Assembly: GCF_058153355.1 (NCBI RefSeq)
Contig: NZ_CM177019.1
Direction: 5' to 3' (one strand)
DNA: 64,000 nucleotides
A model generated the notes under the pieces. That model was not told where the DNA came from, did no database searches, and saw nothing but the letters and a program-made list of their open reading frames with translations. Positions 8,048-8,188 of this stretch are shown here, in pieces; position 1 is the stretch's first letter; every line of letters begins with the position of its first letter. The translations under genes were made by a program, and so were the position numbers.

Positions 8048-8188
8048 AACACCAACCGGAACCTCCACCACGTGCTCGAATGAGGTGTGTTGACGTCGGG
8101 GGAAACCCTCCTGTGTACCAGCGGGATAGAGAGAAAGACAAAGACCGGAAAACAAACTAAAGCGCCCTTGTGGCGCTTTAGTTTTGTT
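8048..8188 (+). ncRNA. sraL: candidate SraL/RyjA small RNA, convergent with and overlapping soxR 3' end (5' boundary approximate)
   Basis: Position between yjcD and soxR as recalled for SraL in K-12; plus-strand intrinsic terminator aaagcgcccttgtggcgcttt + gttttgtt at 8158-8188 encloses the soxR stop codon. Confidence 0.4.

Follow-up and report, generated by a model that had tools for sequence, protein, structure and literature searches.

The small RNA gene sraL (ryjA) and the convergent gene soxR of Escherichia coli most probably share one terminator hairpin

Cis-antisense pairs whose transcripts overlap at their 3′ ends include GadY and gadX of E. coli, as well as RNA I and RNA II from the par (Fst) locus of pAD1, whose transcription units meet at a bidirectional terminator. 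In both pairs, base pairing has been demonstrated to affect the partner RNA. For the small RNA (sRNA) SraL, also called RyjA, the RNA itself is already known, as are its promoter and targets and the fact that its terminator overlaps the one of the convergent gene soxR (Viegas et al. 2007, PMC2190706; K-12 annotation). SraL is ~140 nt long, accumulates in stationary phase and is stabilised by Hfq (PMC2190706); it is polyadenylated in E. coli (PMC5389530) and its stability is lowered by PAP I polyadenylation, by the degradosome and by PNPase (PMC2190706; PMC5389530). (Note that, according to the paper of Viegas et al., Wassarman et al. could not confirm the binding of Hfq to E. coli SraL (PMC2190706).) In Salmonella, the sraL promoter is RpoS-dependent and is enriched in RpoS ChIP (Silva et al. 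2013, PMC3753932), and SraL represses the mRNA of tig, the trigger factor gene, an effect for which compensatory mutations were tested (PMC3753932). Silva 2013 (PMC3753932) locates the tig-pairing site near SraL's 5′ end, which pairs with the tig leader. Also in Salmonella, SraL pairs with the leader of rho, where it keeps Rho-dependent termination from occurring prematurely (Silva 2019, as reviewed in PMC6582626).

Here we analyzed a stretch of DNA of 64,000 nucleotides (contig NZ_CM177019.1 of NCBI RefSeq assembly GCF_058153355.1), to which we refer as the window and whose positions are used throughout. The genes at the locus are as follows.

6282–7631, minus strand: ghxP (open reading frame).
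8045–8185, plus strand: the sraL/ryjA small RNA gene, ~140 nt (full-length match to RF01408; identity to K-12 ryjA, b4459).
8178–8642, minus strand: the soxR coding sequence, 154 amino acids, with its TAA stop at 8180–8178 (open reading frame; RefSeq annotation).
8728–9051, plus strand: soxS (open reading frame).
9054–10649, minus strand: pdeC (open reading frame).

This gene order is that of the ghxP–ryjA–soxR–soxS–pdeC neighbourhood of E. coli, in reverse orientation. When the whole window was scanned with Rfam, positions 8045–8185 of the plus strand emerged as a full-length match to RF01408 (sraL) that spans model positions 1–142 of 142 and reaches 153.3 bits, where the gathering score is 39 (E = 1.1e-34). 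From 8045 onwards, 144 nt match E. coli K-12 with 100% identity; the K-12 counterpart of 8045–8185 is the ncRNA ryjA (b4459), annotated at 4277926–4278066. Of 5420 complete E. coli genomes, 5397 carry sraL with an identity of at least 99%. The window itself differs from K-12; the flanks of sraL are mostly 95–99% identical to other E. coli, and a 629-bp query comprising the ghxP–sraL spacer, sraL and the soxR 3′ end has 95–99% identity in most E. coli genomes. A first-pass annotation of this DNA had expected SraL/RyjA on the plus strand opposite soxR, and both the RF01408 score and the identity to K-12 bear this out. The span that it had assigned to the RNA, 8048–8188, agrees with the gene to within 3 nt, but the gene itself is 8045–8185; the SraL transcript probably ends a few U past 8185, at about 8188.

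We consider it very probable that the interval 8045–8185 is the gene for SraL, the ~140-nt Hfq-dependent stationary-phase sRNA of Enterobacteriaceae, and found nothing in the sequence that contradicts this identification. The arrangement is already annotated in K-12 and described in the literature, and is ordinary in this sense. The identity, structure, conservation and geometry described below come from our own analysis, whereas expression, dependence on RpoS and Hfq, and targets are taken from the literature. The other Rfam matches in the window were a lysine riboswitch (51712–51908, plus strand), the enterobacterial sRNA STnc430 (49507–49656, plus strand) and two naRNA4/REP-type elements (720–791 and 49722–49793, both minus strand).

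To place the locus among its relatives, we used a search anchored on the SoxR protein that yielded 80 soxR loci, with one genome per species and with no Salmonella or Klebsiella loci among them, and the Rfam sraL model was run on 40 soxR loci from Enterobacterales. The RNA was present at the Rfam gathering threshold in 26 of these 40 loci, all of them from Enterobacteriaceae (Escherichia, Citrobacter, Enterobacter, Leclercia, Kosakonia, Phytobacter, Cedecea, Pluralibacter, Pseudocitrobacter, Pseudescherichia, Mangrovibacter and several metagenome-assembled genomes), and in all 26 it lies 3′ of soxR and convergent to it. The same model found sraL in none of the seven Erwiniaceae loci and not in the one Serratia locus (genera Pantoea, Erwinia, Tatumella, Mixta and Serratia), and a blastn screen found no sraL in Pseudomonas or other more distant soxR loci.

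The neighbouring genes of these loci also differed. In species that have no sraL (loci L018, L020, L023, L030, L033 and L040), a glutathione-S-transferase (GST)-like gene lies on the soxR strand ~17–100 nt after the soxR stop codon, and in most sraL-bearing genera (L011–L029) the same GST gene lies ~120 nt past sraL's 5′ end and is divergent from it. The GST gene is absent from the soxR loci of Escherichia and Citrobacter. Because the GST gene lies just past sraL in most bearers and just past soxR in the non-bearers, sraL and its promoter occupy the soxR–GST spacer.

The 90 nt upstream of sraL were aligned from 22 species, and two elements of a candidate promoter were assigned in the window.

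8010–8015, plus strand: a −35-like element, CTGGCG, 17 bp upstream of the −10 box (read from the sequence).
8033–8038, plus strand: a −10 box, TACAAT, followed by TAAAG (alignment of 22 upstream sequences).

The stretch TACAAT–TAA at 8033–8041 fits a motif, TAnAnTTAA, that is conserved in the 22 species; the T, A, A, T and A columns of the −10 motif are invariant across all of the aligned upstream regions, and the annotated +1 is position 8045. At the −35 position, CTGGC(A/G) is largely kept in the same species. The sraL promoter was missed by a scan of 7600–8750 for the σ70 consensus, since CTGGCG in its −35 region matches TTGACA at only three of six bases; the sole promoter-like match in this region was on the minus strand, at 7828–7799, and probably serves ghxP. 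Degenerate −35 boxes are typical of RpoS promoters (Silva 2013, PMC3753932), and the predicted sraL promoter, with its extended −10 element and A/T-rich discriminator, has the features of a σS-type promoter and matches the type described by Silva et al. 2013. The region upstream of ghxP (7690–7905) contains several GCAAACG(T/A)T-like motifs, and its best PurR-operator-like site, at 7889–7904, is GCGCAAACGTTATCGT, which has three mismatches to ACGCAAACGTTTGCGT.

Upstream of the terminator, the RNA is predicted to fold into two domains.

8046–8093, plus strand: the SraL 5′ stem-loop domain (MFE fold; compensatory changes at four outer-stem pairs).
8095–8139, plus strand: the SraL central domain, two short hairpins (GGGGGAAACCC; CCUGUG...CGGGAU) closed by GUC/GAC (Rfam match, MFE fold and consensus structure).

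The consensus structure of the 26 aligned sraL sequences contains 35 pairs; compensatory double substitutions are seen at 7 of them, and none of the helices is broken systematically. Within the 5′ domain a single-stranded stretch, CCGGAACCUCC, is conserved at 8056–8066, and GTCGGGGGAAACCCTCC of the central domain is nearly invariant across the 26 species. Cedecea neteri carries a ~25-nt TG/TA-rich insertion in the loop of the first SraL hairpin (locus L025, ~3080–3110).

These patterns bear on two other readings of the interval. According to one, 8045–8185 codes for a small protein. A 26-codon open reading frame, MRCVDVGGNPPVYQRDREKDKDRKTN, does run from an ATG at 8080 to a TAA at 8158–8160, as part of a 62-amino-acid open reading frame (7972–8160). 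However, its ATG is present in only 5 of the 26 species, being replaced elsewhere by CTG, TTG, GCG, CCG, ACA and similar triplets, and the indels that occur downstream of it across species are not multiples of three. Moreover, the frame sits inside base-paired regions of SraL, and the conservation around it tracks RNA stems that carry compensatory changes. With neither the start codon nor the frame conserved, we rejected the small protein as a candidate, and a coding function for the interval strikes us as exceedingly improbable. According to the other reading, the interval holds no RNA gene of its own, and the hairpin is just the terminator of soxR with a conserved 3′ flank; in agreement with this, RefSeq/PGAP lists only soxR here in most E. 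coli genomes. What speaks against it is the conserved promoter, whose σS-type −10 box lies 7 nt upstream of the RNA start, the covariation of structure over 140 nt on the strand opposite soxR, the curated ncRNA annotation in K-12, and the published Northern blots, RACE and RpoS ChIP (PMC2190706, PMC3753932). The published Northern blots had already ruled out this terminator-only reading, to which we likewise assign a negligible probability.

The identification of the interval as the sraL gene leaves the 3′ end of the RNA, where the two convergent genes meet. Three features were assigned there.

8140–8153, minus strand: a U-rich tail behind the hairpin when read in the soxR sense, GUUUUCCGGUCUUU, the putative 3′ end of soxR mRNA (folding, duplex prediction and alignment).
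8154–8184, both strands: a candidate bidirectional intrinsic terminator hairpin of 13 bp with a 5-nt loop (pattern scan, folding and 26-species alignment).
8180–8188, plus strand: the U-rich 3′ tail of SraL, AGUUUUGUU, which lies partly in the extended stem (sequence, pattern scan and alignment).

A terminator pattern scan detected a stem in which 8154–8166 pairs with 8172–8184, with the loop CTTGT at 8167–8171 and the tail TGTTCATCTT. The plus-strand intrinsic terminator of the first-pass annotation is present, but the hairpin that had been drawn for it, 8158–8179, is only the core of this longer stem. The predicted folding energy of the 8154–8184 hairpin is −20.5 kcal/mol on either strand (z = −6.2 for the plus strand and −5.7 for the minus strand), and none of 200 shuffled sequences folded as well on either strand. 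The number of terminator-like sites in 7600–8750 was not by itself above chance (2 found, 1.7 expected), so that the case for non-randomness rests on the hairpin energy and on the covariance-model score. Across the 26 species the core of the hairpin, AAAGCGCC–loop–GGCGCTTT, is invariant, T-rich tails are found on both sides in nearly all sequences, and one T–A to G–C compensatory pair occurs in the terminator stem in three sequences. In the 12 nt that follow the GGCGCTTT core, outer stem bases included, there are seven T in the soxR sense (AGTTTGTTTTCC) and seven in the sraL sense (AGTTTTGTTCAT).

The K-12 annotation places the 3′ end of SraL at this hairpin. Because the flanks are A/U-rich on both of its sides, one DNA palindrome could terminate soxR too, and from its sequence the hairpin at 8154–8184 would end sraL and most probably also the convergent soxR. 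The curated Term-seq table of Adams 2021 for E. coli, which covers OD 0.4 and 2.0, before the SraL peak, has no ryjA, sraL or soxR entries and none at K-12 positions 42778xx–42780xx. In the scheme that we propose, sraL would be transcribed from the σS-type promoter with its −10 box at 8033–8038 and its +1 at 8045, and transcription would stop at the intrinsic terminator at 8154–8184 and its U tail. SraL would then act in trans by imperfect base pairing, such that tig is repressed and the rho leader is kept from premature termination, and the same palindrome would also terminate soxR. (Note that tig and rho lie outside the window, and that the experiments on tig and rho were done in Salmonella, not in E. 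coli.)

In the window, the coding sequence of soxR extends into this hairpin.

8178–8185, both strands: the 8 nt that the annotated sRNA shares with the soxR coding sequence, comprising the last one and two-thirds codons and the stop (open reading frame, Rfam and K-12).

As had been claimed for this DNA, the terminator encloses the soxR stop codon: the TAA at 8180–8178 on the minus strand lies in the 3′ arm of the plus-strand hairpin. The same 8-nt overlap is present in K-12, where soxR ends at 4277933 and ryjA at 4277926. Among the 26 loci, the end of the sRNA model overlaps the soxR stop codon or coding sequence in six (by 8 nt in E. coli, E. albertii and strain RIT691, and by 1–2 nt in three other loci), lies 0–16 nt beyond the soxR stop in 15, and lies 30–937 nt beyond it in the remaining five (two C. 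youngae strains, E. cloacae, Cedecea sulfonylureivorans and Enterobacter sp. ENT03). As judged from these alignments, one terminator common to both genes is the usual state, and only certain lineages have the overlap with the coding sequence.

The likely origin of the overlap is apparent from the 3′ codons of soxR, which read CTG GAA GAT GAT TAA AAC TAA AGC GCC in Citrobacter sp. FP75 and CTG GAA GAT GAA CAA AAC TAA AGC GCC in E. coli. We infer that the Escherichia overlap arose when an ancestral soxR stop codon next to the hairpin, of the kind seen in Citrobacter sp. FP75, was lost (TAA to CAA; 8186–8184 on the minus strand) and the open reading frame gained two codons (Q and N) to reach the TAA in the stem; this loss would give E. 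coli SoxR its 154 residues, as compared with 152 in most relatives. The overlap is poorly conserved, which suggests that it is functionally neutral. Most likely, it is a side effect of one compact terminator that serves two convergent genes, and not a dedicated regulatory device.

Several natural variants were found around this junction. In Enterobacter sp. ENT03, ~940 bp are inserted between the soxR stop codon and the sraL terminator (locus L012, 2960–3896). In E. coli 118UI, a GC-rich palindromic repeat element of ~160–180 bp directly follows the sraL terminator (L083, 458–616) and is flanked by a ~25-bp duplication (cccttgtggcgctttagttttgt) of the loop and 3′ arm; the sraL hairpin is intact there, the end of soxR adjoins only half of the hairpin, and this strain is a natural variant in which sraL and soxR are uncoupled. 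E. coli NDM6 (L084) has a soxR annotated as a frameshifted pseudogene that has no C-terminus, and only 77% of the sraL query aligns at this locus, with 91.7% identity; the locus may be a natural deletion across the overlap. In the strain studied here, SoxR (8181–8642, minus strand) is identical to that of K-12 at 152 of 154 residues and differs by G74R, which we take to be a common natural polymorphism, and by R138C, which lies just past the [2Fe-2S] cysteine cluster in the C-terminal region of known constitutive alleles. A perfect 18-bp palindrome, CCTCAAGTTAACTTGAGG, at 8654–8671 in the divergent soxR–soxS promoter region is presumably the SoxR operator.

The first-pass annotation had gone further and suggested that the antisense overlap could couple the fate of soxR mRNA to SraL. 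By annotation, SraL and soxR are complementary over the 8 nt of coding overlap, and the complementarity would grow to ~39–43 nt if soxR mRNA ends at the putative U-tract. The 3′ ends of the two RNAs, which is to say the terminator region, would then pair in vivo and RNase III would cut the duplex, such that abundant stationary-phase SraL alters or lowers soxR mRNA, or soxR mRNA affects the processing of SraL. In keeping with this, a predicted 39-bp duplex between the two 3′ ends has an energy of −67.5 kcal/mol, as compared with about −40.6 kcal/mol for two separate hairpins, and the loops of the two hairpins, CUUGU in SraL and ACAAG in soxR, are complementary. On general grounds, an intramolecular stem of 13–17 bp is short for RNase III, and an intermolecular duplex of 39 bp would be a good substrate. 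Indeed, in a Salmonella RNase III mutant the SraL band pattern was changed and the SraL level was raised, and Viegas et al. 2007 suggested a cut in the SraL terminator that overlaps the soxR terminator (PMC2190706); the idea of a coupling has thus already been voiced in part in print. The convergent order of the two genes, kept in every one of the sraL-bearing loci, also fits.

Other observations point the opposite way. In both RNAs the complementary segment is held in a hairpin of about −20 kcal/mol that leaves only the 5-nt loop free to nucleate pairing. The overlap with the coding sequence is confined to the six loci noted above, the hairpin is separated from the soxR stop by 30–937 nt in five, and vertical descent explains the conserved synteny equally well. 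Moreover, the validated roles of SraL, on tig and rho, are all exerted in trans and through other parts of the RNA, and the soxR overlap is not involved in them. Our searches of the literature, including searches for ryjA with Term-seq and for RNase III with antisense, returned no study in which SraL affects soxR or pairs with its mRNA. The predicted energies make a coupling thermodynamically possible, and the evidence as a whole argues for it weakly; we regard pairing of the two 3′ ends in vivo as unlikely. The same holds for the broader notion that the hairpin does more than terminate transcription, in which abundant stationary-phase SraL and the 3′ end of soxR mRNA, or read-through RNA favoured by a terminating ribosome on the 5′ arm of the hairpin, would form an RNase III-sensitive duplex that links σS status to the level of SoxR, or soxR transcription to SraL 3′-end processing and Hfq binding: we think this doubtful, at about one chance in eight.

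A ribosome at a stop codon protects ~12–15 nt downstream, and close spacing between a stop codon and a hairpin can lower the efficiency of intrinsic termination. The geometry of the locus therefore raises the possibility that translation modulates termination of soxR. In particular, a ribosome at the soxR stop would cover the 5′ arm of the hairpin and hinder its formation, and the resulting read-through into sraL would give a full-length antisense RNA and/or a collision with the transcription of sraL. The soxR stop lies within the stem in Escherichia, or 0–16 nt from the hairpin in 15 of the 26 species, as this would call for. However, close spacing of stop codons and terminators is common in compact bacterial genomes and has no known regulatory meaning there, and soxR is weakly expressed whereas sraL is strongly induced in stationary phase (PMC2190706, PMC3753932), which implies that interference from soxR would be small. 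Such an effect of translation thus seems to us still less likely than pairing of the 3′ ends. The case for ribosome-driven read-through at the hairpin consists of geometry and general knowledge, and we would be surprised if it held.

The overlap has a practical consequence, since a complete deletion of sraL clips the C-terminus, the stop codon and the terminator of soxR. A clean test of what SraL does should therefore rely on mutations in its promoter. A 2024 paper on the genome-reduced strain DGF-298 refers to the "overlapping ryjA small RNA" and reports that removal of ryjA shortened SoxR by 8 residues (PMC11481515). The SoxS regulon is constitutively active in this strain, and the paper dismisses the truncation of SoxR as the cause (PMC11481515). 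Elsewhere, changes in the C-terminal region of SoxR, G143D among them, are listed as constitutive alleles, and the DGF-298 truncation (window positions 8178–8201) may matter.

With the 2007 paper and the K-12 annotation as the starting point, the additions of the present analysis are the cross-genus geometry, the explanation by stop-codon loss and the position of sraL in the soxR–GST spacer. In particular, the comparison across genera indicates that the overlap in Escherichia came about through loss of a stop codon, and that sraL occupies what in relatives that have no sraL is a short spacer between soxR and GST.

The closest known system is SraL/RyjA itself (RF01408; K-12 b4459), which the locus matches in sequence, length, secondary structure, position relative to soxR, 8-nt overlap, promoter motif and terminator. 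The RNA is identical to that of K-12, and only the flanks differ (a ghxP–sraL spacer that is 95–99% identical to most E. coli, and the SoxR changes G74R and R138C). Like GadY–gadX and RNA I/RNA II of pAD1, sraL and soxR give convergent transcripts with perfectly complementary 3′ ends that include a terminator stem-loop, if the 3′ end of soxR is where the sequence suggests, and an involvement of RNase III has been suggested for SraL (PMC2190706). Unlike in those pairs, the complementary stretch here is the hairpin only, and the validated activity of SraL is in trans, on tig and rho; SraL/soxR resembles 3′-overlapping cis-antisense pairs in geometry only. With the bidirectional intrinsic terminators of convergent genes, the locus has in common a single GC-rich hairpin, preceded by an A-rich run and followed by a T-rich one. 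It differs from ordinary terminators of this kind in that one of the two units is an sRNA, for which the terminator and U-tail are also the presumed Hfq-binding module, and in that the protein gene has its stop codon within the stem of a hairpin that, judging by its sequence, would also terminate transcription in the soxR direction.
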